A stretch of 64,000 nt of DNA from Gaiellales bacterium (GTDB taxonomy: Bacteria; Actinomycetota; Thermoleophilia; Gaiellales; SKUG01), in NCBI GenBank assembly GCA_038212015.1, contig JBBQUY010000006.1, positions 3,016 to 67,015 of the forward strand, in the 5' to 3' direction. Within the stretch, counting starts at the first letter, position 1. Each line of letters starts with the position of its first letter. The notes beneath the pieces are model-generated. The model ran no database searches and had not been told where the DNA came from. It was given only the letters and a program-made list of their open reading frames with translations. Positions 5,767-38,130 of the stretch are shown here, piece by piece. The position numbers and the translations under genes are program-made.

Positions 5767-5785
5767 GGCGGGGCAGGAGCACGAC

Positions 5786-6430: not shown

Positions 6431-6509
6431 GCCACTGCGTCGAGCCGCAAGCGGCCAGTGCCACAGGGCGACGCCCGGGCCCACGTTACTGCCCGGTAAT
6501 GTTCGAGGA

Positions 6510-12380: not shown

Positions 12381-12476
12381 CACCGGTACGAAATGAGCGA
12401 TTCAGTTCGGGGCCGTCCTTCGGGGGCGGCCCCGACTGCGTGCTCGGCCTCAAGGCTGGCGCACGAACGTGCCGAT

Positions 12477-13139
12477 ATGCGCCGTATGCGCTCCTCCACG
12501 ATTCGCCTCATCTCGATCTTCGTCATCTTCGTCGCCGCGCTCGGTGGCGGGATCCTCGTGCTGCGCGGCTCCGACGACGGGTCGTCGAACGGCAACGGCT
12601 CCGGCGGAAAGAGCGCAGGAAGCGATTTCTGGCAGGTCGGCGACGAGTGGACCGTCCAGGTGGCACAGGATGGCGGTGCGATCGCGCCGGACGGCGGCAG
12701 CACGAGCGTCGCGAAGATCCCGTTCCGCTTCACGGTGATGGACTCACCCGCCACGTCGAGCGAGCCATGGATCGTGAAGGTCGAGCAGGATGGAGCGGAA
12801 GGCCCGTTCGCTGCGGGGTGGCGCCTGTACTACGTCGAGCGCGACGGTGGGATGGAGCTGTCGAAGGTCGCCATGGGCGGTGCCACGGACAAGCCGCTCG
12901 AGGCCGAGCTCGCGACGATCGTGCTCGGATCGCAGTTCCCGTACGAGGTGCGCTACGAAACCGCCCCCAAGGACAAGACGGTCACGGCGGCCGACCTGAT
13001 CGAGCGCTCGTCGCTGCCGCCGTCGTCGGCGGTTCCGGGATCCAACGGCACGGGTGGCCCGGCTGGTGCGCCGACGGCGCCGCCGATCGACGAGGCCGTC
13101 GCCCCGGGCAACACCGCGCCCGCCACGCCGAAGCGCTGA
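12477..13139 (+). CDS. Membrane-anchored hypothetical protein (Pro/Ala-rich C-terminal tail)
   Basis: I chose the internal ATG 12477 (MRRMRSSTIRLISIFVIFVAALGGGILVL = N-terminal TM). The extracytoplasmic domain has no motif I recognise. Confidence 0.5.
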   Translation: MRRMRSSTIRLISIFVIFVAALGGGILVLRGSDDGSSNGNGSGGKSAGSDFWQVGDEWTVQVAQDGGAIAPDGGSTSVAKIPFRFTVMDSPATSSEPWIVKVEQDGAEGPFAAGWRLYYVERDGGMELSKVAMGGATDKPLEAELATIVLGSQFPYEVRYETAPKDKTVTAADLIERSSLPPSSAVPGSNGTGGPAGAPTAPPIDEAVAPGNTAPATPKR

Positions 13140-13228
13140 CCCACTCACAGATCGTTCGTTTATCAAGCATGCGGTGTTGGCGAACCGACGTGCGGTGAAC
13201 TACGGTCGATCCCGAGGGCGGGCTCGGC

Positions 13229-14452
13229 ATGACTGTGACCATGCCCGCACTGCAGCCGCATGTTCGCGAGAAATGCCTGCTCGAGGTCGAATCGCTGCTC
13301 GGCAGCGACCGTCCCTTGCAGGACCGCCTGGAGGCCGTCGCCACCGAGCTCGGCACGCGTATGGGCGTGCAGCGCGTGGTCGTGTACGGACACGGCGATT
13401 CCCGAGACTCCGCCGTTCGCGTTCGAGTGCAGTGGACGGCACCCGAACGCCGGCCGCTCGGCGACTGGATCGGCGCGATACCACTCATCAGCGATCGGCC
13501 GGAAGACCGAGCCATCGTCACGTCGACACCCCAGGGCACCTACTGCCCCGATGACTGCCCTTCGTCGCTCGCCACCTGCGACCTGCAACACGCATGCTCG
13601 AGCATCATCCAACCCCTGCGACTGGGAAGTGTGCGCTACGGGACGCTGGCGGTCCATGCCGTCACCGGGACTGCGTGGAACGACCAGCAGGCATCGCTCG
13701 TCGAGAACGTGGCACGTCGGATCACGCTCGAGATCGCCGTGGCTCGCCAGAGGCGCGTGGAGGCGCACCTCGACGCGCAGCGGTCGGGCATCGCGGCAAC
13801 GGCGCTGCACCAGATCGCGACCCCGGTGACGATCATCGAGGGAGTCATCGATCAGCTCGGCCAAGCGGGCGAGGCACCGCCGGAACTGCTGCGCATCGCA
13901 AGCGTCGAGGTCGAGCACCTGCGCCGCCTCTGTGACGACATCGCGGTGATCGCTGGCGGATCACTCCCGGGGCTGACCGGGACCCGCGACCGATGCGACG
14001 TTGCGGCGACGGTGCAGGCGGCCGTGCGATCCGCCGAGCTTCGACATGCTGGCACCACGATCCGGCTCGAGGTCGAGGACCAGCTCCCCTGTGCGAACTG
14101 CGATGCCGTGGACCTCGCACGAACCCTGGATCGGGTCGTCGACAACGCGGTGCGCTACGCGGGACGCAGCTCGAAGGTCGATGTCGCGTGCTGGGCGGAC
14201 GACGGTCGTGTGTTCGTGCGCGTGCGCGATGACGGCGACGGCGTCACCGCCGCGCAGGCCGCCGTGCTCGGAGAGCCGTTCGCGCGGCTCGATCCGAACA
14301 TGCGGTCACAGCCCGGCGGATTCGGGCTGAGCCTGGCCGTGGGGATGCAGGCGATGCGTCGACACGGTGGCGACCTCCACATCGAGCCTCGGAGCGATTC
14401 GCCGGGCACGCAGGTCACGATCGTGCTGCCTGCGTCGACTCCGGCGTGGTGA
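13229..14452 (+). CDS. GAF-like sensor histidine kinase (orphan, cytoplasmic)
   Basis: DHp His in LHQIATPVTIIEG. HATPase_c boxes DRVVDNAVRYA (N), VRDDGDGV (G1) and GGFGLSLA (G2). The N-terminal ~170 aa is GAF-like. Confidence 0.8.
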   Translation: MTVTMPALQPHVREKCLLEVESLLGSDRPLQDRLEAVATELGTRMGVQRVVVYGHGDSRDSAVRVRVQWTAPERRPLGDWIGAIPLISDRPEDRAIVTSTPQGTYCPDDCPSSLATCDLQHACSSIIQPLRLGSVRYGTLAVHAVTGTAWNDQQASLVENVARRITLEIAVARQRRVEAHLDAQRSGIAATALHQIATPVTIIEGVIDQLGQAGEAPPELLRIASVEVEHLRRLCDDIAVIAGGSLPGLTGTRDRCDVAATVQAAVRSAELRHAGTTIRLEVEDQLPCANCDAVDLARTLDRVVDNAVRYAGRSSKVDVACWADDGRVFVRVRDDGDGVTAAQAAVLGEPFARLDPNMRSQPGGFGLSLAVGMQAMRRHGGDLHIEPRSDSPGTQVTIVLPASTPAW

Positions 14453-14541
14453 CGAACGTGTGCCAGCTGCGCTGACGCAGCCGCCTCGGGCCGCGCAATT
14501 ACGCGGTCCGCATATCGGGATTCATGACGCACCGAACGTAC

Positions 14542-14567
14542 AAACCCGCGAACGATTCGCGGGTTTT
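14542..14567. terminator. Intrinsic terminator-like hairpin (A-tract / 10-11 bp stem / T-tract)
   Basis: AAACCCGCGAA-CGA-TTCGCGGGTTTT sits 90 nt after the kinase stop and before the oxidase operon. Confidence 0.7.
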
Positions 14568-14608
14568 CACGATACGCGACGGGCGGATCGCTGCGAGCCT
14601 GCGCAGCC

Positions 14609-14803
14609 ATGAGCACAGATCCCTTTGCGCCACCAGACGATGCCACCCCGGAAGAGCTCGACGCTGGCGTCACCGAGCGTGTCTTCGACAACCTCGCCGC
14701 CTGGGGATTCATCGCAGTCGCCATAGCGGCCCTCTACCTGGTGTGGGCGACCATCGAGATCCTGACCCAGATTGCCGGCGACATGCCTGGAATTGGAGCC
14801 TGA
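14609..14803 (+). CDS. Small single-TM protein, candidate oxidase subunit IIa-like component
   Basis: 64 aa with one TM (WGFIAVAIAALYLVWATIEIL). Its stop TGA 14801-14803 lies 1 nt before the subunit II ATG. This is the position cbaD occupies in Thermus ba3 operons (from memory). Confidence 0.45.
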   Translation: MSTDPFAPPDDATPEELDAGVTERVFDNLAAWGFIAVAIAALYLVWATIEILTQIAGDMPGIGA

Positions 14804-14804
14804 G

Positions 14805-15377
14805 ATGTCCGAGACGACTCCGACAGCCACACCCCCCGTCCCGGATCCGTCCGAATCGGCGCTCGCACCGCTGCCGGGGCGATGGGCTCGACGAATGCCT
14901 CGCGACGAGTACGTGTTCATGTGGATCGCGATCCTGCTGACCGTCGTGATGTCGGCGTTCCTGGTCGGTTGGATCTTCGTGAGCGACCACAACGTACCGA
15001 CCCGCTCGAAGGCAACGACGCCGACCGAGTTCGGAGAGCAGGTCTCCTCGTTCATGGCCGCAAACGACGCCGAGAACGGCGTGGTCAAGGTCCCGCCCGG
15101 CAAGGACGCCTACGTGATGGCGGAGCGCTACCGCTTCTACCCGGCGCTCGTGCTCAAGGTGAACGAGCCGTACACCATTTGGGTTTCATCGCGCGACGTG
15201 CTGCACGGCTTCTCGCTCGTCGGTTTCAACCGGAGCCTGAACTTCACGGTCGCACCGGGACACGCCTACGGCCTGCGGTTCACGCCGGACAAGACCGGCA
15301 CCTACAAGATCGTCTGCAACGAGTACTGCGGACAAGCGCACCACGCCATGACCGGCACGATCACCGTCGAGGAGTAG
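14805..15377 (+). CDS. Heme-copper oxidase subunit II, B-family (ba3-like), CuA domain
   Basis: Single N-terminal TM (VFMWIAILLTVVMSAFLVGWIF). CuA ligand motif HGF...CNEYCGQAHHAM. GGAG lies upstream of ATG 14805. Confidence 0.85.
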   Translation: MSETTPTATPPVPDPSESALAPLPGRWARRMPRDEYVFMWIAILLTVVMSAFLVGWIFVSDHNVPTRSKATTPTEFGEQVSSFMAANDAENGVVKVPPGKDAYVMAERYRFYPALVLKVNEPYTIWVSSRDVLHGFSLVGFNRSLNFTVAPGHAYGLRFTPDKTGTYKIVCNEYCGQAHHAMTGTITVEE

Positions 15378-15384
15378 TAGGACC

Positions 15385-17139
15385 ATGGCAACCGCCGAGA
15401 TCACCGCCAGCGCGCTTCCGCTCACCCGCAGCGAGCGCTCCGTCATCTGTCCCGTCACGGGCCTGCGCATCTACGCAGGTGCGCGCGCCCTCACGCTCGC
15501 CAACGCCGTCGCCGCGGTACTTGCACTCGCGGCAGGCGGCACGTTCGCGCTGCTCGTGGGACTGACGCGCACGCCATCGGTGAGCATGCTCAAGCCCGAG
15601 GCGTACTACCAGTCGCTCACGGGGCACGGCGTCGCGGCGCTGATTCTCTGGCCCATCTTCTTCGAGGTCGCCGCGATGGTGTTCGCCTCGTCGATTCTGC
15701 TCAACACGCGTGTGTGGAGCATGAAGCTGGGCTGGACGTCATTCGCCGCAATGATCGCGGGCACGGCGATGCTGCTCGTGTCGGTGATCAGCGGAAAGGC
15801 GAACGTGACGTTCACCGCATATCCCCCGCTCATCGCCAACCCGATGTTCTACCTCGGCTACATCGTGTTCGCCGTGGGCGTGCTGCTGGCGGTCGTCAAC
15901 TTCTGCATGACGATCCTGCTCGCGCGCCAGGAGCGCATGAAGAACAAGTCCCTGCCGCTGCTCACCTATGGCGTGGCGGTGGCCGCGCTGCTCGCGCTCA
16001 TGGGCATCGTCGCCGGACTCGTCGCGCTCGTGCCCGCCTGGCTCTACTCGATGGGCCTGATCGGCTCGGTCGAGCCGATCGTCTACCGCGCGTGGTTCTG
16101 GGGTCTCGGCCATACGCTGCAGTACGTCAACGTGGTGGCGATGGTGGTGGCGTGGTACGGCATCATCGCGCTCACCCTGCGCGCCGGACCGGTCAACCAG
16201 AAGTTCAGCCGGCTGGCGTTCATCCTGTACCTCGTGTTCGCGGTGCCGGTGCTCGGCCATCACTTCATCGTCGATCCGGGCCTGTCGACGAGCGTCAAGG
16301 TGTTCGGGGCCTCGTTCATGGGCTTCGCGCTCGGCATCCCGAGCCTCATGCACGGCCTCGCCGTGATGGGCGCCGTCGAATCTCGCATGCGACGCGGTGG
16401 CGGCGTGACGGGCCTGTTCGGCTGGATCCGCGCGCTCGACTGGAAGCATCCCGGCATCGCCGCACTCGGCGTGTCGCTCGTGCTGTTCGCGATCGGTGGC
16501 TGGTCCGGATCGGCACAGACCACGCTGCAGCTCAACATGCTGACCCACAACACGATGTGGGTGCCGGCGCACCTGCACGCAGTTGTCGTCGGCGGCATGA
16601 CGCTCGGCTTCATGGGCTTCGCGTACTACCTGGTGCCGATCCTCGCCGGTCGTCGCCTGTTCTCGCGGCGCCTCGCGACGATCCAGGTGTACCTGTACGG
16701 CGGTGGCCTGCTCTTCATGATCGCGATGCAGTCCTGGGCCGGCATCATCGGCGTGCCGCGACGTACCGCGTCGATCGAGTACGGCGGACAGGCCCCGACG
16801 AGCTGGGAGCTCCCGATGAACCTGATGGGCGTCGGCGTGACGCTCGCCGCGCTCGGCGGCCTGATCTTCATCCTCCAGATGGTGCTGACCCTGATCGTCG
16901 GCAAGCCGACGTCGGATCCCGCCGAACTCGTTCCGAGCGCGAGCAAGATCCCGCTGGCGGACCCGCCCACGCTCGCAGCCGCGACGGCGAACGTCGGTGG
17001 CCCGAACGACGGCGGCACGCCCGACCGGCGCCTCGAGACGCCCGGCGCGTTCAGCGTGATGACCATCTACGTGGCCCTGTTCCTGGTGACCTGGCTCGCG
17101 TACTTCGCATACCTGACCCTGCACTGGGCCGTGAACTGA
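15385..17139 (+). CDS. Heme-copper oxidase subunit I, B-family (ba3-like)
   Basis: Polytopic, 584 aa. Contains GHTLQY (CuB His plus cross-link Tyr spacing), GHHF (CuB His pair) and PAHLHAVV (heme ligands). Confidence 0.85.
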   Translation: MATAEITASALPLTRSERSVICPVTGLRIYAGARALTLANAVAAVLALAAGGTFALLVGLTRTPSVSMLKPEAYYQSLTGHGVAALILWPIFFEVAAMVFASSILLNTRVWSMKLGWTSFAAMIAGTAMLLVSVISGKANVTFTAYPPLIANPMFYLGYIVFAVGVLLAVVNFCMTILLARQERMKNKSLPLLTYGVAVAALLALMGIVAGLVALVPAWLYSMGLIGSVEPIVYRAWFWGLGHTLQYVNVVAMVVAWYGIIALTLRAGPVNQKFSRLAFILYLVFAVPVLGHHFIVDPGLSTSVKVFGASFMGFALGIPSLMHGLAVMGAVESRMRRGGGVTGLFGWIRALDWKHPGIAALGVSLVLFAIGGWSGSAQTTLQLNMLTHNTMWVPAHLHAVVVGGMTLGFMGFAYYLVPILAGRRLFSRRLATIQVYLYGGGLLFMIAMQSWAGIIGVPRRTASIEYGGQAPTSWELPMNLMGVGVTLAALGGLIFILQMVLTLIVGKPTSDPAELVPSASKIPLADPPTLAAATANVGGPNDGGTPDRRLETPGAFSVMTIYVALFLVTWLAYFAYLTLHWAVN

Positions 17140-17142
17140 CAC

Positions 17143-18045
17143 ATGCACGCGACCGGCATCCTCGTCGCTCATGTCGATGGCTCCGGCACGGAGACGCTCG
17201 ACGAGCTGCTGACCTCATGGGAGCGCGCTCCGTCCCTGCTGCTGCTGCTCGGGCTGCTCACCGTCGCCTACGTGCGCGCACTGCGCTCCACCGGACTGGG
17301 TCGTCGCCAGCGCGGCGTTCGACTCGCCGCCTGGCTGGGCTCGATGGTCGCGTTCCTGCTCGCGCTCGGATCACCCGTAGATGCCCTGGGCGCCCATCTG
17401 GTGTCGGGTCACATGCTCCAGCACATGCTGCTCGGTGATGCCGGACCCGCATTGGCGGCGGCAGCATTGACCGGCGGCGTCGGCGCGTCGATGGCGCGAA
17501 CCTTCGCGATCGGTCCATTCCGGACCGTGGCGCGAATCGCGCGGAAGACGCCGGTCGTCGTCGTGGTCTGTGCGTGGGGCGTGACGTGGGGCATGTGGCA
17601 CACGACGTGGGCCTACGAGGCGGCGCTGCGGTCAGCCCCGATTCACATGTTCGAGCACGTGTCGCTGCTGATCGTCGGCATCTGGTTGTGGACCGTGATC
17701 GTCGATCCGATGGGGTCACGCTCGGAGCAGTCGGCAACGCGCATCGGGGTGTCGGTCGCGGCGCTCTTCTTCGGTGCGATCCTCACCAACTCCCTGACAT
17801 ACGTGGACGAGCCGACCTATCCGGCGCTTGTCGGGAACGCGGAGCGGCTGGTGGGATGGACGAGCACGGCGGACCAGCAGCTGGCGGGACTCGTCATGCT
17901 CGGGATGCAGGCGTTCACGATCGGCGTCGCGCTCTGGTACCTGATCCGCCGGCACCTCGCGGCCGGCGCCGACGCTGCCCGCTCCGGCGACCTGCTCGCG
18001 GAGCCGGGGCGCGCTCCGGCTGCGTCGCACCCGCTCACCTGGTAG
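17143..18045 (+). CDS. ctaG: Cytochrome c oxidase assembly protein (Caa3_CtaG family)
   Basis: Multi-TM protein with SGHMLQHMLLGD and MFEHVSLLIVG motifs. It lies immediately after subunit I. Confidence 0.7.
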   Translation: MHATGILVAHVDGSGTETLDELLTSWERAPSLLLLLGLLTVAYVRALRSTGLGRRQRGVRLAAWLGSMVAFLLALGSPVDALGAHLVSGHMLQHMLLGDAGPALAAAALTGGVGASMARTFAIGPFRTVARIARKTPVVVVVCAWGVTWGMWHTTWAYEAALRSAPIHMFEHVSLLIVGIWLWTVIVDPMGSRSEQSATRIGVSVAALFFGAILTNSLTYVDEPTYPALVGNAERLVGWTSTADQQLAGLVMLGMQAFTIGVALWYLIRRHLAAGADAARSGDLLAEPGRAPAASHPLTW

Positions 18046-18158
18046 CAGCTCCGTAGTTCACCGCAATGACGTGCGGCATTCCACGTAGTTGGGCGTGCCC
18101 TCCTATGCCGATGCCACATCAGACGAGTCAGGGTGGACATGCGTCGGGGGAGGTCACC

Positions 18159-19427
18159 ATGGCACGGTCGAGCGTTCGAACGGTTCGTTGCAGGCGGGGT
18201 CCGCAGGTGGCGTGCATCCTCGCCGGCCTGGTCGGCGTGATCATTCCCGTGGCGATGTCGTCCGGTGAAGCGAGCGCAGCTCCCCGACCCGTTCCCGCCG
18301 TGGAGACGACCGTCTTCGGGCTGGAGATGTTCGCCCAGGCCCCGTTCAAGCGCTCGCCGTTCAAGCGCGCACCTTTCAAGCGGGCCCCGTTCAAGCGAGC
18401 ACCCTTCAAGCGAGGACCGTTCAAGCGAGCGGAAGCACGGTCTCCGTTCATCGAGCAGCTGATTCCCACCAACGTCCAGCGTGCAGGCGCCCTGCGCAGC
18501 TCGACCGCGGCGATCGACGGAATCGACGAGCTGCTGGATGTCGACATCGCGGTACTCGATGGCGGCGTCGATGCCGCGCACCCCGACCTGCGCGTCGCAG
18601 GTTCGATCAACTGCACGGCCGGCGGTACCCTCGACCGCGACCTCGATGGCCACGGCACGATGGTGGCGGGTCTCGCGGCTGCACGTGACAACGGGTTCGG
18701 CGTGGTCGGCGTGGCGCCGGGCGCACGCATCTGGTCGGTGCGCGTCGCACGTCCCGACGGGACGATCACCGAGCAGGCGGCTCGGTGCGGCCTGCAATGG
18801 CTCGTGGACCATGCAGACACGATCGAGGTTGCGAACCTGAGCTGGAGCGGCGCGGGGGATCCCTCCGACGCGTGCGGCACGTCCGCGGCTGCCGAGGCAA
18901 CCCGCCCGCGCGGTGGTGGCGGCGCGAACGTCGACCCCGGTGCGGAGCCCGAGCTGCATGCGCTCGCCTGCGCGGCGCACGACGAGGGCGTCGTGCTCGT
19001 CGCAGCGGCCGGCAATGATGCCGCGGACGCGGCGGGTGTGCTGCCTGCTGCCTGGGGCGAGGTGCTGGCGGTGTCGGCGATCGCCGACAGCGACGGCGAT
19101 CGCGGCGGACTCGGCGGCTCGCCCTGCGACACCGGGGAGCTGGATGATCATCTCGCGAGCTTCTCCAACACGGGCGCGCCCGTCGCGATCGCCGCCGGGG
19201 GCGTCTGCGTGGCGTCGACCGACGCACGGGGCGGCTATGCCACCGGCAGCGGTACGAGCTTTGCATCGCCGATCGTCGCCGGTGCTGCTGCGCTGCTGCT
19301 CGTGCGTGAGCCGACGCTCACGCCAGACCAGGTTCGCGAGCGGCTGCTCGCGGCGGCCGAGCCGGGGCCGATTCCCGGCGACCGAGACCAGACCGTCGAG
19401 GGTGTCGTCGACGTCGGCACCGACTGA
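18159..19427 (+). CDS. Secreted S8 (subtilisin-like) serine peptidase with a PFKR-repeat pro-region
   Basis: ATG 18159 follows GGGGGAGG, and a signal peptide is present. The catalytic triad context is LDGGVDAAHPDL (Asp), HGTMVAGLAAA (His) and GTSFASPIVAGAAALL (Ser). Confidence 0.85.
   Translation: MARSSVRTVRCRRGPQVACILAGLVGVIIPVAMSSGEASAAPRPVPAVETTVFGLEMFAQAPFKRSPFKRAPFKRAPFKRAPFKRGPFKRAEARSPFIEQLIPTNVQRAGALRSSTAAIDGIDELLDVDIAVLDGGVDAAHPDLRVAGSINCTAGGTLDRDLDGHGTMVAGLAAARDNGFGVVGVAPGARIWSVRVARPDGTITEQAARCGLQWLVDHADTIEVANLSWSGAGDPSDACGTSAAAEATRPRGGGGANVDPGAEPELHALACAAHDEGVVLVAAAGNDAADAAGVLPAAWGEVLAVSAIADSDGDRGGLGGSPCDTGELDDHLASFSNTGAPVAIAAGGVCVASTDARGGYATGSGTSFASPIVAGAAALLLVREPTLTPDQVRERLLAAAEPGPIPGDRDQTVEGVVDVGTD
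18339..18428 (+). repeat. Six tandem 15-nt coding repeats (APFKR SPFKR APFKR APFKR APFKR GPFKR)
   Basis: Read directly from the sequence. They are in frame within the S8 peptidase, between the signal peptide and the catalytic domain. Confidence 0.95.
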
Positions 19428-20884
19428 TGTCAACGCCATGCCCCGGACTTCCCCGACCGAGATGGCGTCGGCGAACCCTCCGGCTGGTCGCGGGTACCTG
19501 GGTGGCCACGGGTCTGCTCGCGCCCCTGCTCGTGGGTGTGCTGCAGCCGGAGCTGCTGATCGGACCAGGGCTGTTGCTGTCGCTGGTGCTGATCGCATTC
19601 GCCGTGGCCGGCAGCAACGTGGAGCTGCGCTTCTCGCTCGATGATTCGGGTCCGGTGTGGTCGCCGGTGGGTGTGCCGATCGTGCTCGCGGTGGTGGCGT
19701 GCAGCGTCCCGCAGGCGATGCTCGTCACCGCGCTCGGCTACCTGCTCGATCGAGCTACCTGGGGTCGAGGTCGCCTGCTGGCGATCGAGACGGCCGGGCT
19801 GGGAGCGATGAGCGCGGGCGGTGCCGCGCTGCTCGCACACTCGATCGGGCTGCGCTTCGACTCGCCCGGCATCGCGCTCGTGTCGGCGATCGCCGCGAGC
19901 GTGCTGTTCCTGGTCCTCGACGCGGTCACGTATGCCGTCTGGTATCAGTTCGAGTCCGGGACCGGCGGGTATGTGCTCCGCTGCTTCGTCGGAGCCGCAC
20001 CCATCGACGTGACGTTCACCACGGTCGCGGTGCTCGTCACCGGGCCGTTCATCGGCGCACCGTTCGTCGTCGCGCTGGTGCTCGCCGGTTGTCAGGGTGC
20101 GATCTACGCCCTGTATCGTCTCGTGACGAGCGAGTCGCGTCATCGGCAGCAGTCCGATCACCTGCGCGAGGTCTTCTCGCGGTACGTTCCGGAGCAGGTG
20201 GCGCAGCGCCTCGCGACGAGCCCCGACAAGGTCCGCCTCGGCGGGGAGCTGCGCGACGTGACGGTGCTGTTCTGTGACATCCGCGGCTTCACTGGCTGGG
20301 CGGAGCGACGGGATGCGGAATCGGTCGTCGGTGAACTCAACTCGCTGCTCGGGGGCCTGGCGGAGATCGTCATGGAGTCGTTCGGCACGCTCGACAAGTT
20401 CACTGGCGACGGCCTGATGGCGTTCTGGGGCGCACCGCTCGATCAACCTGACCATGCCGAGCGCGCCTGTCGCGCCGCGATCGGCATGCAGCAGCTGCTC
20501 GACCGTCGCCATCGCGAGCTCCTGATCGGCGACGACTTCGAGTTTCGGATCGGGGTCGGGATCGCGTCAGGCCCGGTGGTCGTCGGCAACGTCGGCCACG
20601 AGAAGCGCCTCGACTACACCGCGATCGGCGACACCGTGAACCTCGCCGCTCGCCTGGAGCAGTCGACCAAGGAGCTCGGGGTTCCGACCGTCGTGTCCCA
20701 CGACACGTGGCTGCGGCTTCCGCCGGCCTTCCGCGAACGGTGCGCCAATCCCACGACCGTGACCGTGAAGGGTCGCGTCGCGCCCGTGCAGGTGCATGCG
20801 CTCGTTCACGACGTGACGGTCATGGAGGCGGGCACGAACGCACAGCCCGGATCCTCGGCAAGCGGATTCCCGCTCGCGGCGTAG
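19427..20884 (+). CDS. Membrane-bound class III adenylate/guanylate cyclase
   Basis: About 6-7 N-terminal TM helices. Cyclase motifs VTVLFCDIRGFTGW, FTGDGLMAFWGAP, RIGVGIASGPVVVGNVG and YTAIGDTVNLAARLE. The ATG overlaps the peptidase stop (TGATG). Confidence 0.85.
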   Translation: MSTPCPGLPRPRWRRRTLRLVAGTWVATGLLAPLLVGVLQPELLIGPGLLLSLVLIAFAVAGSNVELRFSLDDSGPVWSPVGVPIVLAVVACSVPQAMLVTALGYLLDRATWGRGRLLAIETAGLGAMSAGGAALLAHSIGLRFDSPGIALVSAIAASVLFLVLDAVTYAVWYQFESGTGGYVLRCFVGAAPIDVTFTTVAVLVTGPFIGAPFVVALVLAGCQGAIYALYRLVTSESRHRQQSDHLREVFSRYVPEQVAQRLATSPDKVRLGGELRDVTVLFCDIRGFTGWAERRDAESVVGELNSLLGGLAEIVMESFGTLDKFTGDGLMAFWGAPLDQPDHAERACRAAIGMQQLLDRRHRELLIGDDFEFRIGVGIASGPVVVGNVGHEKRLDYTAIGDTVNLAARLEQSTKELGVPTVVSHDTWLRLPPAFRERCANPTTVTVKGRVAPVQVHALVHDVTVMEAGTNAQPGSSASGFPLAA

Positions 20885-21909
20885 GCCCGTGCGCGGCTGC
20901 CGCCGCAGCGGGTCTTGAACTCGCAGGCGCCGCACTTGCCCTCGAGTGCGTCGGGATCACGCAGGGACACGAACAACGGGTGCTCGCGGTACACCTGGAT
21001 GAGGTCGTCGCTGCGGACGTTGCCTGCGGTGAGGGGCAGGAACCCGCTCGGGCAGATGCCGCCGAGGTGATCGATGAAAACGAACCCGTTGCCGTCGGTG
21101 ACGGCGCGGCCCGCGCGACCGATGCCACGCACGGGAGCCTGGCTGCCCGACGCCGCGCGGCGCTCAGCGAGCACGCGGTGGTAGTGCGGCGCCTCGGTCG
21201 TCTTGATGCCGAACGAAACGCGCTCCTGCAGGTCAGCAGCCCACTGGAGCACGTCCTCGATCTCTGAAGGGGCGAGCGCGTCGTCGGCGCTTGCGCGGCC
21301 GACCGGAATCAGGAAGAACAACGCCCACAGCACGACCCCGGCTTCCTCGACGAACTCGGCGATGCGGGGCAGGTCGGCGAGCGTCTGCCGCGACACCGTC
21401 GTATTGATCTGCAGGGGCAGTCCGAGCTCGCGCGCGTCGTCGATGATCCGGCGCGTGTAGCGGTGGGATCCTCGGACGCGACGAAACGCGTCGTGTGCCT
21501 CCTCCGTGGCTCCGTCCAGGCTCACCGCGAGCCTGGAGAGTCCCGCATCGCGTACTTCCTCGAGCCGAGCGTGCGTGACCGCGGCGGTGCCGCTCGGCGT
21601 GAGGGCCATCGAGATCCCGCGCTCGATGCCATGGCGTACCAGCTCCGGAACATCACGCCGGCGGAGCGGGTCGCCCCCGGTCAGGACGAACAGTGGCGGT
21701 CGTTCGCCGAACTCGGCGACCCGGTCGAGCAGCTGCTTGCCCTCCTCCGTGCTCAGCTCGAGCGGATTGCGATGCGGCATCGCTTCCGCGCGACAGTGCA
21801 CGCATGCGAGCGCGCAGGCGCGGGTGATCTCCCAGATCACGATGAACGGCGCACGCTGGAAGTCGAGGTCGGCGAATGACGGCCGCAGCGCGACGCTCGG
21901 AACGCTCAT
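20806..21909 (-). CDS. NirJ/AhbC/AhbD-family radical SAM/SPASM protein (second of two)
   Basis: CX3CX2C in ITRACALACVHC. C-terminal SPASM-like Cys cluster CPSG...KCGACEFKTRCGG. ATG 21909 overlaps the upstream stop (ATGA). Confidence 0.8.
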   Translation of the reverse strand: MSVPSVALRPSFADLDFQRAPFIVIWEITRACALACVHCRAEAMPHRNPLELSTEEGKQLLDRVAEFGERPPLFVLTGGDPLRRRDVPELVRHGIERGISMALTPSGTAAVTHARLEEVRDAGLSRLAVSLDGATEEAHDAFRRVRGSHRYTRRIIDDARELGLPLQINTTVSRQTLADLPRIAEFVEEAGVVLWALFFLIPVGRASADDALAPSEIEDVLQWAADLQERVSFGIKTTEAPHYHRVLAERRAASGSQAPVRGIGRAGRAVTDGNGFVFIDHLGGICPSGFLPLTAGNVRSDDLIQVYREHPLFVSLRDPDALEGKCGACEFKTRCGGSRARAYAASGNPLAEDPGCAFVPASMTVTS

Positions 21910-23135
21910 CGCGCGACACCCTCCAGTTCGTGCTCGACGGCAGCAGGTGGCAGCTCGATCGCACGCTCCTCCGCCGTGAGCGGGCACGACGGATCCTCGG
22001 CCCAGATGTCGCCGTGGAAGCTGTTCGCACGAGCGCGGAACCCGCCGCACACGTCCTTGAACGCACAGCTGCCACAGGCTCCTTGGAGCGGCCAGTCCTC
22101 GCGACGCAGCTCACGCAGCACCTCGTCCTGCGGCTCGTCCTCGGTTGGGCTCCACAGTTCCCGAAAGGGCGTCTCGCGCACGTTGCCGATCGAATGCGTG
22201 AGCCAGAACTGGTTGGGGTGCAGGACGCCGTCGTGGTCGATCTCGACGATCCTGCGCCCGGTGCCGTCACCGCTCTGGCGTCGCAGCGCGGCAAGCACCT
22301 CGGCGGCGCGCTCGGGTCGATTGCGCAGCGTCCACAGGTAGATGAGCGGGCCGTCATGGGGCGCGTCCACGGTCAGGATCTCGGGACCGAAGTCCTCGGC
22401 CTGTTCGCAGAGTGCCTCCACGATCTGGCGACGATGGTCGTTCTCCACGTCGCCGTTGCGCTTGCCGCGACCCGACGGAACGAGGTGGTACATGCAGAAT
22501 CGCGCGACGCCGAGCTCGTCCGCGAGCTCGAGCACCTCATGCAGGTCATGCACGTTGTCGGCCGTGATCGTGAAGCGCATGCTCACGCGCAGGCCGACTG
22601 CCTGGCAGTAGCGCACTGCGGCGATCGTCTTGCGGAACGCTCCTGCCTTGCGGCGGAACGTGTCGTGGGTCTGCTCGGACCCGTCGACGGAGATGCCGAC
22701 GTACACGGCCCCGTGGTCCTTGAGGCGCTGCGCCTCCTCGACGCTGCGGATGAGCGTGCCGTTGGTGGAGATCACGGGCGTGATGCCGCGGTCGGCCGTG
22801 TGCCGGATGATCTGGGGCAGGTCCTTGCGGATGAGCGGTTCGCCGCCCGAGAACAGCAACACGGGCACGCCCGCATCGGCGAGCTCGTCGATGACGCGGA
22901 TCACGTCCTCGTACGGCGTCGCGATCGGGTTGCGTCCCAGCACGGCGGAGTAGTAGCAGTGCTGGCAGGCGAGGTTGCAGCTCTGGGTGATGTTCCAGAC
23001 GACGACCGGTCGATGCGACGTGCGGTCACCGTAGTCGTGCGCGACGACGGGCGCGGTGTCGCGTGCGGAGCTGCCGTAGCGGTATCGATCGGACGGACTG
23101 CGCCGCCCCGTCACCAGGCGCGTGAGGCCGATCAT
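21906..23135 (-). CDS. NirJ/AhbC/AhbD-family radical SAM/SPASM protein (first of two)
   Basis: NITQSCNLACQHCY radical SAM motif. C-terminal GACGSCAFKDVCGG. ATG 23135 overlaps the ahbAB stop (ATGA). The upstream 400 codons of the 811-aa track ORF are shadow sequence. Confidence 0.8.
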   Translation of the reverse strand: MIGLTRLVTGRRSPSDRYRYGSSARDTAPVVAHDYGDRTSHRPVVVWNITQSCNLACQHCYYSAVLGRNPIATPYEDVIRVIDELADAGVPVLLFSGGEPLIRKDLPQIIRHTADRGITPVISTNGTLIRSVEEAQRLKDHGAVYVGISVDGSEQTHDTFRRKAGAFRKTIAAVRYCQAVGLRVSMRFTITADNVHDLHEVLELADELGVARFCMYHLVPSGRGKRNGDVENDHRRQIVEALCEQAEDFGPEILTVDAPHDGPLIYLWTLRNRPERAAEVLAALRRQSGDGTGRRIVEIDHDGVLHPNQFWLTHSIGNVRETPFRELWSPTEDEPQDEVLRELRREDWPLQGACGSCAFKDVCGGFRARANSFHGDIWAEDPSCPLTAEERAIELPPAAVEHELEGVAR

Positions 23136-24205
23136 GCTCGCACCCCGATGCGCGCCTGCTCCCAGGCTTCCTGTTCCGGTGTGAAGTACCGCACGCGCAC
23201 CTTCTTGAACTCGCGGGTCGAATACAGCACGTCGTAGTCGTCGAGACCGGTCGCTTCGGAGATCGCGGCGAGCACTGCCTCGCACTCCTCCCGACTGCGA
23301 CCGTGCGTCATCGTGAAGAGCCCGTACGGCCAGTCGTCGTAGGTCGGTCGCGCGTAGCAATGCGAGACCCCTTCGAAGCTCGCCATCGTCCGGCCGTACT
23401 CCTCGATGCGGTTCGGCGGGACGATCCACACGCCCATGCCGTTCGCACGGAATCCTGCGCGGCGATGGTGCAGGACCGCAGCGAAGCGGCGCATGAGCCG
23501 CGACTCGCGAAGCTGGAGGGCGCGGTCGAGCAGGTCCTGCACGTCGAATCCATGCTCCTCGGCGAGCAGCGCGAACGGCTCCTCGATCGCGGGCAGGTCG
23601 CGCTGCAGCGCGAGGATCGCCTCGACCGTGCGTGCGTCCTCGTGGACCGTCGGCGGGTGCACGTCGCTCGCCGCGGGCGGGGCGGCGATCGCAGCCGGCG
23701 GCTCGGTGCGTCGCGCATCGGCGGCGCGACCGCCCTGGATGTCGAAGTTGACGCCGATCCGGAACACGCGCAGTGCGGGCAGCAGCAGCGCCGCCTCGGC
23801 GCCGGCCTCCTCGGTGATCAGGTCGACGGTCGCCTCGAGCCCGAGCGAGCTCTCGGGGGATACCGCGATCGTGAACCAGAGGTTGTAGTCGTGATCGCGC
23901 TGGTAGTTGTGACTGACACCGGGATGCGCGGAGACGATTGCTGCGGCGTCCTCGAGGTTCGCCGGATCCACCCGCGCGGCGACGAGACTGCTCGCATACC
24001 CGAGCCGGCGCGTGTCGAAGATCGCGCTCACCTGGCGAATGACACCGTCGGAGCGGAGGCGGATGACGGCGTCGATCACGTCCCGTTCGGTCGATCCGAT
24101 GTCGGCCGCGAGAACCGCGAACGGGCGGGGCACCAGCGGCACGTCCTGCTGCATGCGTTCGAGGAGGGCACGGTCGAGTTCGTTCATGTCGCTCGTCTGC
24201 TGCAT
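23132..24205 (-). CDS. Siroheme decarboxylase, fused AhbA/AhbB (NirD/L-G/H-like) two-module protein
   Basis: Two tandem Lrp/AsnC-like plus NirD-type modules: LDRALLERMQQDVPLVPRPF...VSHNYQRDHDYNLWFT and ILALQRDLPAIEEPF...VSHCYARPTYDDWPYGLFTM. GGAGG lies 7 nt before ATG 24205. Alternative starts lie at 24259 and 24187. Confidence 0.8.
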   Translation of the reverse strand: MQQTSDMNELDRALLERMQQDVPLVPRPFAVLAADIGSTERDVIDAVIRLRSDGVIRQVSAIFDTRRLGYASSLVAARVDPANLEDAAAIVSAHPGVSHNYQRDHDYNLWFTIAVSPESSLGLEATVDLITEEAGAEAALLLPALRVFRIGVNFDIQGGRAADARRTEPPAAIAAPPAASDVHPPTVHEDARTVEAILALQRDLPAIEEPFALLAEEHGFDVQDLLDRALQLRESRLMRRFAAVLHHRRAGFRANGMGVWIVPPNRIEEYGRTMASFEGVSHCYARPTYDDWPYGLFTMTHGRSREECEAVLAAISEATGLDDYDVLYSTREFKKVRVRYFTPEQEAWEQARIGVRA

Positions 24206-24408
24206 CGCCTGGCCTCCGATCGGGCGGGACCAGACCCCACCACGGTAGGACGACATCAACGCATGTCGAGCAGGTTCGAGGCATCCGGGAAAGACCGCAG
24301 CCGCATGCGCGGAACACCGAAGCCGATCCGCGGGCCAGCACGGACGGTCAGGTGCTCGGCGCCACCTAGCATCGCCTCGTTTTCACCCACCATCACGAAG
24401 GCGATCCA

Positions 24409-24885
24409 ATGACACCGCGACACCTCTCCCTCCTCCTGCTCATGCTGTGTGCCGCGCTGTTCGCGGTCGGATGCGGCGGCGACTCCGACTCGGACTCCGG
24501 CGATTCCGGAGGTTCGTCGGGCGATGATGCAGCCGAATCCGCGGACCTGCCAGAGGGCACCATCGGGGTCGAGCTCGGCGAGTTCTTCGTCAAGCCGAGC
24601 GCCGACTCGGTCGCGGCAGGCGAGGTCACCTTCCAGGTGGCGAATGCCGGAGACGCATCCCACGAGCTGGTGATCTACAGGACCGACGAGGAAGCCGACG
24701 CCCTCGAGCAGGATGGCGGCGTGGCGAAGCTGGACGAGGCAAACGTGATCGACGAGACCGACGAGCTGTCATCGGGCGACGAGGCCGAACTGACGGTCAC
24801 GCTCGAGGCGGGCTCATACCTGCTGCTGTGCAACCTGCCCGGCCACTACTCGTCCGGCCAGGTCGTCGCATTCACCGTGACCTGA
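24409..24885 (+). CDS. Lipoprotein cupredoxin (type-1 copper-like) with Gln at the axial position
   Basis: Lipobox LFAVGCGG followed by an acidic Ser/Asp linker. Cupredoxin ligand pattern SHELV ... CNLPGHYSSGQ (Cys141, His146, Gln151, where Met is usual). Confidence 0.75.
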   Translation: MTPRHLSLLLLMLCAALFAVGCGGDSDSDSGDSGGSSGDDAAESADLPEGTIGVELGEFFVKPSADSVAAGEVTFQVANAGDASHELVIYRTDEEADALEQDGGVAKLDEANVIDETDELSSGDEAELTVTLEAGSYLLLCNLPGHYSSGQVVAFTVT

Positions 24886-24903
24886 GCAGAACCGCCGTTC
24901 TGC
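24886..24903. terminator. Bidirectional hairpin between convergent genes
   Basis: GCAGAAC-CGCC-GTTCTGC fills the 21-nt gap between stops at 24885 (+) and 24907 (-). Confidence 0.5.
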
Positions 24904-24906
24904 CGG

Positions 24907-26544
24907 TCAGTCGACGAGCCGTCCGATCTGCGCTTCCCATGCGCGCAGGTCGGGCGGCGTCGTCGTGTGGCGATAGGCATCGAGCTGGTCACCGTAGGCG
25001 GCGACCTGCGCAGCCCCGCTCGTGTTCGACGCCCCGAACGCGCGCGCTGCTGCGCCGAGGTTGGCGCCGAATTCCGCCTCGATGAGCGCGATCGTGGGCA
25101 GCACGCGGCCTCCGTCGATCGCGACGAGCCCACCGATGTCGCCGCGCCCTTCGTCGCCGCCGCCTCGTTCGAGTACGTCGTGGTTGTTGGCGGAGTAGAT
25201 GAACCAGCCGCCGGCTCCGTCGAGCGCGGCCGTCGCGGTGGAGATCGCGGCGCTGCCCGGCGTGCCGGCGTCGAAGAACGCGTTGCCGGGGTACTCGAGC
25301 AGCTCCAGGCTGCGCCCGTAGGACGACGACGCGGCGCGGATGTCGCGGATCGCGGTGTCGCGGTCGCGGCCGGCGGCTGACTGGGTCGTTGCCCAGCCGT
25401 CGATGACACTGGCGTACACGAGGTTGTGAGGACGTGCCTGCGCTGCGACGAACAGCTTCGCGCGCGAGCCGCCTGCCTGCAGGTGGCTGCGCAGCTCAGC
25501 GATCCAGGCGGTGGTGCCCTGCGCCTGATCGGCACTCTTGTCCTGTTCGTCGCTCACCTGCACCCAGAAGGTGGCGTTGGGATTTGCGCTGCCGGCTCGT
25601 CGCTCGGCTTCGATGATGCGCCGCGCGGTGTCGGCCGGCGAGGCGCGGGTCGCGGCTTCGTAGGCTGCGCTGAAGTACTGGACCGGCGAGCGGTTCGATG
25701 CGCTCGTGGTGGTGATGCCGGAGTTGCCGCTCGCCGCGACGCCGAAGTGCGCGAGCACCGAACCGAGGGCGGCCGGATCGGCCCCCCGCTGCTTCGCATT
25801 GGACTCGTTGATCCAGGCCATCATGGGCAGCGCGTCGATCGAGCGAGTGCCGACATGGACCTGCAGTCGCGCGCCGGCGATGTCGACCACGTGGTCGCCG
25901 GGCGTCGTTGCCGTGACTCGTGCGACGACGCGCGCCGTGTCGCCGGCGGCGATCGTGACCGGACCCCGCACCGGTTCGAGCACCTGCGTGCGATGCGCGC
26001 CGCGCTGGAAGTCGCGCAGCACGAACAGCTCGGTGGTGACGCCACCCGCTGCCTGTGGTGGCTGGATCGTCGTGCCGCTCGTGCCGCCGTCGACGACGAC
26101 CTGTCGGTAGGTGACCTGGTTGCGCGCCATGCGGAGCTGGTCGACCTGCCCCGGTCGAAGCTCCGGCAGTACACTGCTGCGACTCGTTGCCTGCGTCGAG
26201 ATCGGCCCGCCACCCTGGATCGGGGATTGCTGCGGCGCCTGCTGTGGCGCCACGCCGCCGCCAGCGCCGCCAGCAACGCCTCCGCCACCTGCGACACGGC
26301 GCGCGAACGACTCGACCGCCATCCGCAGCTGCTCGACGGCGACGGCAAGCCGATCGATGGTGGCACGCAGGTCGGTGCCGGCGGAAGCGAGCGCGCCCCC
26401 TCCCGCGGCTCCGGCAACGGCGCCGGATGACGCGTGCGGGCATGTGGACGGCATGCGCGCGTCGGCCGCACCCGACGCACGTGACGCGTCCCCCGACTCG
26501 ACGGGGCGCTGCCTCGGTTCGCGGCTGCCACTGATCGCATCCAT
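24907..26544 (-). CDS. Large hypothetical protein (coiled-coil and Gly-rich N-terminus; C-terminal part possibly glycoside-hydrolase-like)
   Basis: This is the only frame here with balanced composition (Trp/Tyr/Asn/Ile/Phe present). I found no signal peptide. The start is uncertain (ATG at 26544, or internal Met codons). A faint resemblance to DUF4091-type proteins is from memory only. Confidence 0.5.
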   Translation of the reverse strand: MDAISGSREPRQRPVESGDASRASGAADARMPSTCPHASSGAVAGAAGGGALASAGTDLRATIDRLAVAVEQLRMAVESFARRVAGGGGVAGGAGGGVAPQQAPQQSPIQGGGPISTQATSRSSVLPELRPGQVDQLRMARNQVTYRQVVVDGGTSGTTIQPPQAAGGVTTELFVLRDFQRGAHRTQVLEPVRGPVTIAAGDTARVVARVTATTPGDHVVDIAGARLQVHVGTRSIDALPMMAWINESNAKQRGADPAALGSVLAHFGVAASGNSGITTTSASNRSPVQYFSAAYEAATRASPADTARRIIEAERRAGSANPNATFWVQVSDEQDKSADQAQGTTAWIAELRSHLQAGGSRAKLFVAAQARPHNLVYASVIDGWATTQSAAGRDRDTAIRDIRAASSSYGRSLELLEYPGNAFFDAGTPGSAAISTATAALDGAGGWFIYSANNHDVLERGGGDEGRGDIGGLVAIDGGRVLPTIALIEAEFGANLGAAARAFGASNTSGAAQVAAYGDQLDAYRHTTTPPDLRAWEAQIGRLVD

Positions 26545-26702
26545 CGTCGTTCCTCGTCCCGTACCGCGCTGGTTCGTCCGTCCTCATCCATCGTCGGTCG
26601 CGAACGAAGATCGGTCGATCCCCGCATGCGTGAAGCTGTGGGGACGCCGCAGCGAGCTGCGGGAAATCCGCAGCGACTCCGCGATGCATAGCTGCTGACC
26701 AC

Positions 26703-27317
26703 GTGCGTCGTCGAGTCGATGCTGTACGTAACAGGACCGACACGCCTTCGACACGATTCGAGCCAGCCGTGCCCATTCAGCTCAACGCCCAGCCTCTCGC
26801 CGACTTTGACCGACCCATCGACATGCTCGAGGATTGCCACCGACGCATCGAACGATTCCTGCGCATGCTGCAGGCGGTCGTCCTGGCAGCAACGAACGAC
26901 GGCACGATGACCGAGGATGCTGCAGAAGCACTGCAGACTGCGCTGCGCTACTTCCGCAACGCCGCGCCGCAGCACACTGCCGACGAAGAGAAGTCACTGT
27001 TCCCCCGGATGCGCGACACCGGCGATCCGCGCGTCGCCAAGGTGCTCGGGCAGCTCGACCGTCTGGAACAGGACCATGCGCGAGCGCACCAGCTGCACGA
27101 GGTCGTCGATCAGCTGGGGATGCGATGGCTGCACAAGGGCGTGCTGCGACGTGACGAGCTCGCGGAAATGGACACGACGCTCTCCCAGCTGCGCGACATC
27201 TACGCGGAGCACATCGATCTTGAGGACTCGGTCGTCTTCCACCTCGCCCGCGAGGTGCTCGGATCCGACGCGCTCGACGGCATGGGCGTCGAGATGCGTG
27301 CCCGCCGCGGTCATTGA
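26703..27317 (+). CDS. Hemerythrin HHE cation-binding domain protein
   Basis: Repeated His/Glu ligands: DCHRRIERF, QHTADEEKSLFP, DHARAHQLHE, AEHIDLEDS. The start is uncertain (GTG 26703 or in-frame GTG 26769). Confidence 0.7.
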   Translation: MRRRVDAVRNRTDTPSTRFEPAVPIQLNAQPLADFDRPIDMLEDCHRRIERFLRMLQAVVLAATNDGTMTEDAAEALQTALRYFRNAAPQHTADEEKSLFPRMRDTGDPRVAKVLGQLDRLEQDHARAHQLHEVVDQLGMRWLHKGVLRRDELAEMDTTLSQLRDIYAEHIDLEDSVVFHLAREVLGSDALDGMGVEMRARRGH

Positions 27318-27356: not shown

Positions 27357-28391
27357 ATGAGTGACTTCCCGGATCGCAACCTCGCCATGGAACTCGTCCG
27401 CGTCACGGAGGCTGCAGCGCTCGCAGCCGCACGCTGGGTCGGTCGCGGCGACAAGAAGGCAGCCGACAAGGGCGCCGTCGACGCAATGCGTTCGATGCTT
27501 GGTCGCATCGCGATGGACGGACTCGTCGTGATCGGCGAGGGCGAGAAGGACGAAGCGCCGATGCTCTTCAACGGTGAGCGCCTCGGCACGGGTGCGCCGC
27601 CGGAAGTCGACATCGCGGTCGACCCCCTGGAAGGCACGACGCTCTGTGCGAAGGGCATGCCCAACGCGATCGCCGTAATCGCGATCGCCGAGCGCGGCGC
27701 GATGTTCGATCCCGGTCCGTGCTTCTACATGGAGAAGCTCGTCACCGACAACGAGGCGGCGATGGCGATCGACATCGAACGCCCGATCGAGGACAACATT
27801 CGCGCGGTTGCGGCAGCCAAGGGCAAGCCGATCAACGAGACGACCGTGATCATGCTCGATCGCGCGCGACACGCGGATGCCAAGGCCCGCATCCGCGAGA
27901 CCGGCGCACGCATCCGCATGATCAGCGACGGTGACGTTGCCGGCGCGATGATCGCCGCCCGTGAAGGCAGCGCGATCGACCTCATGTACGGCGTCGGCGG
28001 CACCCCCGAAGGCGTGCTCGCGGCAGCCGCGATCCGCTGTCTCGGCGGCGAGATCCAGGCCCGTCTGGCTCCGCAGGACGAAGCCGAGCTGGCCGCGGTG
28101 AAGGAGTACGGCTGCGACCTCGGGCGCGTCATGATGCGACGCGACCTGGTCTCCGGCCGTGACGTGTTCTTCGCCGCGACGGGCGTCACCGACGGCGACA
28201 TGCTCGAAGGCGTGCGCTACAGCCGCCGCGGCGCGTCGACCCAGTCGATCGTGATGCGCTCGCGCTCGGGAACGGTGCGCATCGTCAACGGCGAGCACAA
28301 CCGCGAGAAGCTCGAGTCGTATCTCAAGAGCACCGGCCTCGGTCTCTCCGAAGGCGCCCCGATCCCCACGGGTACGGGCGTCACGATCTAG
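27357..28391 (+). CDS. glpX: Class II fructose-1,6-bisphosphatase
   Basis: Full-length GlpX-like sequence: NLAMELVRVTEAAALAAARWVGRGDKKAADKGAVDAMR..., VVIGEGEKDEAPML, DPLEGTT. Confidence 0.9.
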   Translation: MSDFPDRNLAMELVRVTEAAALAAARWVGRGDKKAADKGAVDAMRSMLGRIAMDGLVVIGEGEKDEAPMLFNGERLGTGAPPEVDIAVDPLEGTTLCAKGMPNAIAVIAIAERGAMFDPGPCFYMEKLVTDNEAAMAIDIERPIEDNIRAVAAAKGKPINETTVIMLDRARHADAKARIRETGARIRMISDGDVAGAMIAAREGSAIDLMYGVGGTPEGVLAAAAIRCLGGEIQARLAPQDEAELAAVKEYGCDLGRVMMRRDLVSGRDVFFAATGVTDGDMLEGVRYSRRGASTQSIVMRSRSGTVRIVNGEHNREKLESYLKSTGLGLSEGAPIPTGTGVTI

Positions 28392-37975: not shown

Positions 37976-38067
37976 GCTGCAGCAGGCCGCGCACCTGGTG
38001 CGCGATGAGATAGGAGACATTCCCTCGGCGCCCGCGCGCATCGTACGGCGAGCGCCACGAGGAACCA

Positions 38068-38099
38068 CGAGCACGACCCCCGCATGGAGGTCGTGCTCG
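38068..38099. terminator. Hairpin between convergent genes
   Basis: CGAGCACGACC / GGTCGTGCTCG forms a perfect 11-bp stem with a 10-nt loop. Confidence 0.5.
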
Positions 38100-38130
38100 A
38101 CGTCTTCGACGCGCATTCACACACGCCGTC

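Follow-up and report, generated by a model that had tools for sequence, protein, structure and literature searches.

Within the 64,000-nucleotide stretch analyzed here (hereafter the window; contig C6 of the assembly, G000:C6), which derives from the metagenome-assembled genome (MAG) of a soil Gaiellales bacterium (assembly 3.49 Mb, 86.7% complete, 4.15% contamination), three consecutive minus-strand genes occupy positions 20806–24205. The first, ahbAB (gene 1, P0001; 23132–24205, 357 aa), encodes a predicted fused two-module siroheme decarboxylase and is followed by genes for an AhbC-like radical S-adenosylmethionine (SAM)/SPASM protein (gene 2, P0002; 21906–23135, 409 aa) and for an AhbD-like radical SAM/SPASM protein of the TIGR04053 family (gene 3, P0003; 20806–21909, 367 aa). 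We consider it probable, at odds of about three in four (0.77), that the three genes constitute one translationally coupled operon for an accessory route to heme b that depends on siroheme (Ahb route) and not on oxygen. According to textbooks and recent reviews, Actinomycetota use the coproporphyrin-dependent (CPD) route, whereas heme synthesis from siroheme is a trait of archaea and sulfate reducers.

Operon architecture and family assignment

Both gene junctions consist of an ATGA tetranucleotide, in which the start codon of gene 2 overlaps the stop codon of ahbAB, and the start codon of gene 3 the stop codon of gene 2, by 4 nt each, and a GGAGG motif lies 9 nt upstream of the ahbAB ATG. The junction of genes 2 and 3 (21401–22035) was recovered with 0 differences in an independently assembled Logan contig from a soil run, and 4-nt overlaps are also present in related loci, namely in L169, a 9.8-kb contig of another MAG (4295/4298 and 5488/5491), in L170 (1913/1916) and in L070 (9191/9194). 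Upstream of ahbAB, sequence inspection delimited a divergent intergenic region shared with a cupredoxin gene (24206–24408), which presumably contains the promoter; a scan of this region with the sigma-70 consensus returned no match, a null result that is uninformative because the host is an actinobacterium with a G+C content of 69%. At the other end of the operon, the 3′ ends of gene 3 and of a cyclase gene (19427–20884, plus strand) overlap convergently by 79 nt (20806–20884), and a comparable 3′ overlap of 53 nt exists in L169 between ctaG and the third ahb gene.

The encoded proteins were assigned to families using NCBIfam equivalog cut-offs (140 bits for AhbA, NF040708; 125 bits for AhbB, NF040707; 650 bits for AhbC, TIGR04546; 500 bits for AhbD, TIGR04545; and 395 bits for TIGR04053) together with Pfam domain matches. 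P0001 scored 251 bits against both AhbA and AhbB, and its Pfam composition of two NirdL-like_HTH (PF22451) and two AsnC_trans_reg2 (PF17805) domains corresponds to two AsnC/Lrp-like modules. Over its full length, the protein could be aligned with NirDL of Hydrogenobacter (4CH7/4CZC; 277 bits), its best structural homologue, as well as with chains A and B of the AhbA/AhbB structure 4CZD. Both halves carry a GVSH(N/C)Y motif (PGVSHNY and EGVSHCY) that matches the equivalent motifs of 4CH7, and whose histidines are reported from the NirDL structure to be essential residues. P0001 is most likely a siroheme decarboxylase that would yield 12,18-didecarboxysiroheme.

For P0002 the best-scoring family was AhbC (353.4 bits), followed by NirJ1 (340.7 bits), a haloarchaeal pseudo-SAM family (315 bits) and NirJ (314.7 bits). 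The protein contains the radical SAM motif CX3CX2C (C53/57/60) and a C-terminal CX2CX5C...C cluster (C354/357/363/384), and the cysteines of both motifs are invariant in 19 clade members. This clade is small, comprising about 19 clusters (90% identity) with at least 51% identity to P0002, one of which is named Thermoleophilia, while a 50%-identity library held a single clade representative, with scores dropping from 565 to 310 bits at the next match. P0003 exceeded the TIGR04053 cut-off with 452.7 bits and shows the same two motifs (C32/36/39 and C326/329/335/356). More than 120 clusters of close relatives share 70–80% identity with it, and all of those bearing a taxon name belong to Gaiellales or Gaiellaceae; some of the close relatives are fusions with an FeS_assembly_P domain. 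Close TIGR04053 homologues often stand alone; some have narG, hemerythrin or Usp genes as neighbors, and others follow a gene of the COX1 family.

Phylogenetic trees were computed with FastTree (139 radical SAM sequences) and by maximum likelihood with IQ-TREE (62 sequences). In both trees the sequences fell into an AhbD/TIGR04053 group, which included P0003, and an AhbC/NirJ group, which included P0002. Peptide maturases were discarded as an identity for genes 2 and 3, as the best maturase family reached about 126 bits, compared with 353 and 453 bits for the tetrapyrrole families. The original prediction, made without database searches, had described three minus-strand genes coupled by ATGA, a fused AhbA/AhbB protein and two radical SAM/SPASM proteins with CX3CX2C and a C-terminal cysteine cluster; the open reading frames, both overlaps, the scores above both decarboxylase cut-offs and the cysteine motifs bear this out. 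It had further named a grouping of the radical SAM proteins with non-heme SPASM maturases as an outcome that would speak against it, and here scores and trees alike favored the tetrapyrrole families. Its assignment to the known heme enzymes is supported with a correction: gene 2 scores highest on AhbC, NirJ1 and NirJ, and gene 3 on TIGR04053 and AhbD, but both proteins stay below the equivalog cut-offs of AhbC and AhbD.

Proposed route to heme and its alternatives

Genes of the siroheme route are present elsewhere in the genome: contig C21 carries hemA, hemC and a cobA-hemD fusion, and C16 has a module of the CysG-N type, so that siroheme can be made; hemB lies on C8. Searches of the MAG for the NIR_SIR domain of siroheme-dependent reductases and for CbiX returned no match, and AhbAB is, as judged from gene content, the only recognized siroheme consumer in this assembly. 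Likewise, neither ferrochelatase (PF00762) nor UroD/HemE (PF01208) matched any protein of the MAG, and HemY gave just a 19.7-bit fragment on TIGR00562. A ChdC-family gene is located on C62; it is unfused, does not adjoin hemE or hemY, and scores 152 bits on HemQ_actino, which is below the cut-off of that family. In addition, the genome encodes a second fused ahbAB (G000:C46:16537-17487; L050 8460-9536, minus strand), which is 52% identical to P0001, adjoins serS, is orthologous to the copies of congeners and is followed downstream by a gene for a 320-aa protein without Pfam match. We refer to this copy as the core ahbAB. The siroheme synthesis genes anticipated by the original prediction were thus found, whereas the search for CPD genes that it had suggested gave a mixed picture, with hemE, hemH and hemY not found and ChdC, the last CPD enzyme, present.

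The operon under study is accessory and resides on a variable segment (13199–27317) that has no counterpart at the same junction in four genomes of the same genus (G001, G002, G003 and G005). In these congeners the flanks are syntenic and the homologue of 12393–13139 is directly joined to glpX (27357–28391), which identifies the stretch from 13.2 to 27.3 kb as an insertion or variable segment. The Ahb reading of the operon proposed originally is supported, with the further corrections that the genome contains a second ahbAB copy and that the operon is accessory.

In the route we propose, siroheme would be supplied by the hemA-hemC-cobA/hemD products and the CysG-N type dehydrogenase/chelatase. 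The fused AhbAB would then remove the C12 and C18 acetate carboxyl groups of siroheme to give didecarboxysiroheme, from which the AhbC-like enzyme would take off two acetate side chains to yield Fe-coproporphyrin III (coproheme), and the TIGR04053 enzyme would be a radical SAM decarboxylase of the AhbD type that converts coproheme to heme b, with no step requiring O2. The second ahbAB and the H2O2-dependent ChdC represent the core equipment, beside which the operon would stand as a low-oxygen accessory. Haloferax uses AhbD for anaerobic and ChdC for aerobic growth (PMC5746218), and by analogy the operon likely provides heme under scarcity of O2 or H2O2. Gene structure, family membership, genome content, synteny and the insertion are direct observations, whereas the substrates, the products and the low-oxygen role are inferred.

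Gene order in other genomes is consistent with this proposal. An AhbC-like gene followed by a TIGR04053-type gene was seen in Acidimicrobiia, Thermoleophilia, Solirubrobacteraceae and Thermoplasmata, with AhbA/B genes coming after the radical SAM pair in some Thermoplasmata and Planctomycetota loci. The AhbD slot directly after AhbC is occupied by a TIGR04053-type gene in L070, L071, L074, L095, L152, L169 and L170, and in the Planctomycetota locus that was checked, the second radical SAM gene scores best on AhbD itself. Besides the operon of the window, P0002-type genes are linked to ahbA/B, ahbD-like and heme genes in L169, L137 (AhbAB-AhbD-like-sirC / hemA-cobA/hemD-AhbC) and the hem cluster of L071, a locus of GCA_054032715.1. 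The latter reads sirC-hemA-hemC-ywiC-cobA/hemD-TIGR04053-P0022-hemB-AKR (AKR, aldo-keto reductase), where P0022 is a member of the P0002 clade, and continues with a ChdC-Rieske-AhbAB fusion. As the substrate of ChdC is coproheme and P0022 adjoins the ChdC fusion, the P0002 clade should produce coproheme and hence catalyze the AhbC rather than the NirJ reaction. The fusion itself (L071 11323-13503) is a single protein of 726 aa, which is encoded within the hem cluster next to the aldo-keto reductase and a small ferredoxin.

The L169 module is nearly collinear with that of the window (identities of 88% for cox1, 88% for AhbC and 73% for AhbAB). Its third ahb gene (5488–6624), however, is 43% identical to gene 3 of the window, both being of the TIGR04053 type, which suggests that the AhbD-type gene was replaced in place between the two modules, and such an in-place swap argues for the same job of both proteins. 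Upstream of the radical SAM pair, L070/L172 carry nrdD-nrdG-hemerythrin, with NirK-like, ScdA and Rrf2 genes close by. Together with the narG, Usp and COX1-family neighbors of TIGR04053 genes, these contexts of both radical SAM families point to a low-oxygen use.

Several observations weigh against the proposed route. P0002, at 353 bits, remains far under the AhbC cut-off of 650 bits and NirJ trails by just 39 bits, while the IQ-TREE topology places the P0002 clade outside the clade of named Desulfobacterota AhbC as well. P0003 reaches 317.7 bits on AhbD (TIGR04545), which is below the cut-off of 500 bits, and TIGR04053 carries no function name. The ChdC encoded in the genome could catalyze the last step, which would render an AhbD redundant, and no regulator site was identified for the ahb operon. 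Moreover, genes not found may still exist, since at 86.7% completeness and 4.15% contamination of the MAG their absence is not proven.

Part of this evidence could also be read in a way that we regard as improbable, namely that genes 1 and 2 make coproheme and ChdC alone completes heme, while gene 3 modifies another substrate or serves the oxidase encoded nearby as a chaperone or maturase. Such a role would agree with TIGR04053 being a separate equivalog without named function, with gene 3 scoring under the AhbD cut-off, with the presence of ChdC in the genome, and with the frequent stand-alone occurrence of TIGR04053 homologues, some of them immediately downstream of a COX1-family gene or carrying a fused FeS_assembly_P domain. 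However, the nearest characterized family of gene 3 is AhbD (318 bits), the place of AhbD behind AhbC is taken by TIGR04053 genes in Ahb clusters of archaea and bacteria as well as in one hem cluster, and the corresponding slot in L169 is filled by the 43%-identical TIGR04053 gene beside an 88%-identical AhbC. Stand-alone AhbD is, in addition, an accepted pattern in CPD organisms, as AhbD homologues have been noted in Gram-positive bacteria without other Ahb genes (PMC13564367, PMC10548856). The gene 3 family resembles these homologues in being commonly stand-alone in Gaiellales-type genomes near anaerobic-respiration genes, which fits an oxygen-independent alternative to ChdC, whereas in the window gene 3 is part of a coupled unit with AhbC and AhbAB, and hemE, hemY and hemH were not found.

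It is very unlikely that the product of the operon is instead heme d1 or a related dioxo-isobacteriochlorin, with gene 1 acting as NirDL and gene 2 as a propionate-removing NirJ to feed a cytochrome cd1 nitrite reductase. NirJ and AhbC are close homologues that share their substrate, didecarboxysiroheme, the fused decarboxylase has the architecture of NirDL, gene 2 scores 315 bits on NirJ compared with 353 bits on AhbC, and a denitrification gene (NirK-like) is present in the window. The two trees differed in this respect: with the NirJ-like clade defined by labeling the tree with hidden Markov model matches (P0257 reaching 469 bits on NirJ), FastTree set the P0002 clade beside it with a support of 91, whereas IQ-TREE placed the P0002 clade (97 SH-aLRT) outside it, on a deeply splitting branch of its own. 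We rejected heme d1 synthesis on the position of gene 2 outside the NirJ-like clade in the maximum-likelihood tree and on the genome content, as no Cytochrom_D1 domain (PF02239; nirS, nirF, nirN) was matched in the 86.7% complete MAG, so that this reading lacks a client enzyme; the original prediction had itself named these genes as the sign of heme d1 synthesis. Furthermore, the genome has a copper-type nitrite reductase, heme d1 synthesis requires one radical SAM enzyme and no AhbD-type partner, and P0022 of the same clade adjoins a fusion of ChdC, which requires coproheme.

Finally, an assembly or binning artefact, in which foreign DNA was joined into contig C6, is scarcely credible, since, in spite of the 4.15% contamination of the MAG and the absence of the segment from four congeners, the contig shows synteny with congeners on either side of the segment (65–94% amino-acid identity), the G+C content is even throughout the segment, the left edge (12795–14210) is spanned with 0 differences by a soil-run Logan contig, two genomes of the same family (G006 and G007) possess the AhbC/TIGR04053 pair, and the nearest named relatives of gene 3 are Gaiellales.

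The siroheme-dependent operon that we favor can be compared with two characterized systems. Like the Ahb pathway of Desulfovibrio and Methanosarcina barkeri, it combines three enzyme types in pathway order, with a decarboxylase above the equivalog cut-offs and radical SAM/SPASM proteins of the AhbC and AhbD groups, in a genome that contains siroheme genes and in which hemE and hemH were not found. In contrast to that pathway, AhbA and AhbB are fused as in NirDL, TIGR04053 is the family of the AhbD-type enzyme, and the AhbC-like protein, which shares about 44% identity with AhbC of Desulfobacterota, branches deeply and separately from it. The host, moreover, is of an aerobic-type actinobacterial lineage in which the operon is an accessory. 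With Haloferax volcanii, which possesses AhbA/B, AhbC and AhbD along with the ChdC-type PitA (PMC5746218, PMC8305020), the window genome shares an Ahb front end and last enzymes of both the ChdC and the AhbD type and, as proposed here, an oxic/anoxic division of their use. It differs in that the host is bacterial, ChdC is unfused and of the actinobacterial type, ahbAB is present in two copies, and the radical SAM genes lie on a strain-variable segment instead of in the core genome.

A literature search yielded no account of TIGR04053, nor of a siroheme route in Thermoleophilia or Gaiella. The operon would represent a known Ahb system in a lineage for which that search gave no description, and its AhbC- and AhbD-type enzymes are divergent, with scores under the equivalog cut-offs. 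As a compact, clonable set of three genes, it gives access to what may be a complete Ahb route of a bacterium of aerobic-type ancestry and provides a first functional handle on TIGR04053.

Heme routes across the order

The distribution of heme genes was surveyed in 40 genomes of the order (G001–G040), with five families (f1–f5) represented by eight genomes each. Fused AhbAB was detected in all genomes of f2, f4 and f5 (8/8 each), in 5/8 of f1 and in 0/8 of f3, while full-length HemE and ferrochelatase were confined to f3, where all eight genomes encode each of them; three f4 genomes and one f5 genome gave partial URO-D matches alone. ChdC was detected in 32 of the 40 relatives. The original prediction had set the Ahb operon apart from Actinomycetota that use the CPD route, a contrast that needs to be qualified, as AhbAB is the rule in this order and not the exception. 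With the CPD entry enzymes found neither in the window MAG nor in four of the five sampled families, and a siroheme decarboxylase combined with ChdC as the common pattern, the usual "Gram-positive" heme route seems, from these gene contents, to have been given up in this lineage.

AhbC/TIGR04053-type radical SAM genes, in turn, were restricted to the window genome and to G006 and G007 of the same family, with weaker matches in two f3 genomes. As most of the order has AhbAB and ChdC and the AhbC type is almost absent, no known enzyme accounts there for the conversion of didecarboxysiroheme to coproheme, and one of the genomes with AhbAB and ChdC and without an AhbC-type enzyme is 100% complete. 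A control search of Sulfolobus acidocaldarius performed in the same manner likewise gave no AhbC-type match, although AhbA and ChdC were matched.

Three candidates for a replacement of the AhbC step were considered and rejected. The 320-aa protein without Pfam match encoded 3′ of the core ahbAB is confined to family f1, and a conserved ChdC neighbor of family f5 has no homologue in the window genome. An aldo-keto reductase (G000:C83:2670-3692, L173), which is 40% identical to the L071 aldo-keto reductase, has orthologues in 17 of the 32 genomes of the AhbAB families and in none of the eight f3 genomes; it is missing, however, from several near-complete genomes.

Taken together, we tentatively envisage, at slightly less than even odds, that the operon is the tip of a wider pattern. 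Most of the Gaiellales searched, in which homologues of AhbC, NirJ and AhbD as well as hemE and hemH are missing, would make heme from siroheme via AhbAB and ChdC with an undiscovered, probably oxygen-tolerant enzyme for the didecarboxysiroheme-to-coproheme step, and the variable segment would be a transferable kit for low-oxygen respiration (oxidase, cupredoxin, hemerythrin and radical SAM heme route) that bypasses this step. The gap in the relatives is approachable by phylogenetic profiling within a single order, and the order-wide pattern with its missing AhbC step offers more novel leads than the operon itself.

Contents and edges of the variable segment

Besides the ahb operon, the segment of about 14 kb encodes a GAF kinase, a divergent heme-copper oxidase locus (cox2-cox1-ctaG; 14766–18045, plus strand; Pfam COX2, COX1 and Caa3_CtaG), an S8 peptidase, the convergent cyclase, a cupredoxin-like protein, a 545-aa protein and a hemerythrin-domain protein. 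The oxidase scores far under the cut-offs of A-type models, and its linkage to ahb genes is found in L169 as well. The cupredoxin-like gene (24409–24885, plus strand; weak Cupredoxin_1 match of 25.5 bits) is oriented divergently to ahbAB and has an equivalent at the same position in L169 with 79% identity. At the right edge, the hemerythrin-domain protein (26703–27317, plus strand; PF01814, 60 bits) also has a homologue in L169, and the 545-aa protein gave no Pfam or NCBIfam match.

Scans of the segment ends revealed neither flanking repeats nor a credible tRNA target, and no integrase domain was present among those segment genes that were scanned. An origin from a mobile element is unsupported by these scans, and the segment is island-like only by its presence and absence among congeners. 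The listed Logan contigs did not cover the right junction, joints of 20–21 nt among the reads look like noise, and the public runs listed as containing the sequence included no RNA dataset. Within the 545-aa open reading frame, ARAGORN reported a tRNA-Thr(CGT) of 89 nt on the opposite strand (25624–25712), which is probably a false positive.

Regarding the wider neighborhood, the operon had been described as lying between a heme-copper oxidase locus and a cupredoxin/NirK surrounding. The oxidase genes and the cupredoxin gene do lie on either side of it, but the NirK-like gene is 14 kb distant. This gene (38009–39793) encodes a protein of 594 aa with an N-terminal extension of about 300 aa that scores 167 bits on TIGR02376, under the cut-off of 296 bits. 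Lastly, the S8 peptidase gene contains about seven tandem 15-nt repeats (GCNCCNTTCAAGCGN) at 18323–18427, which encode a short repeated peptide.

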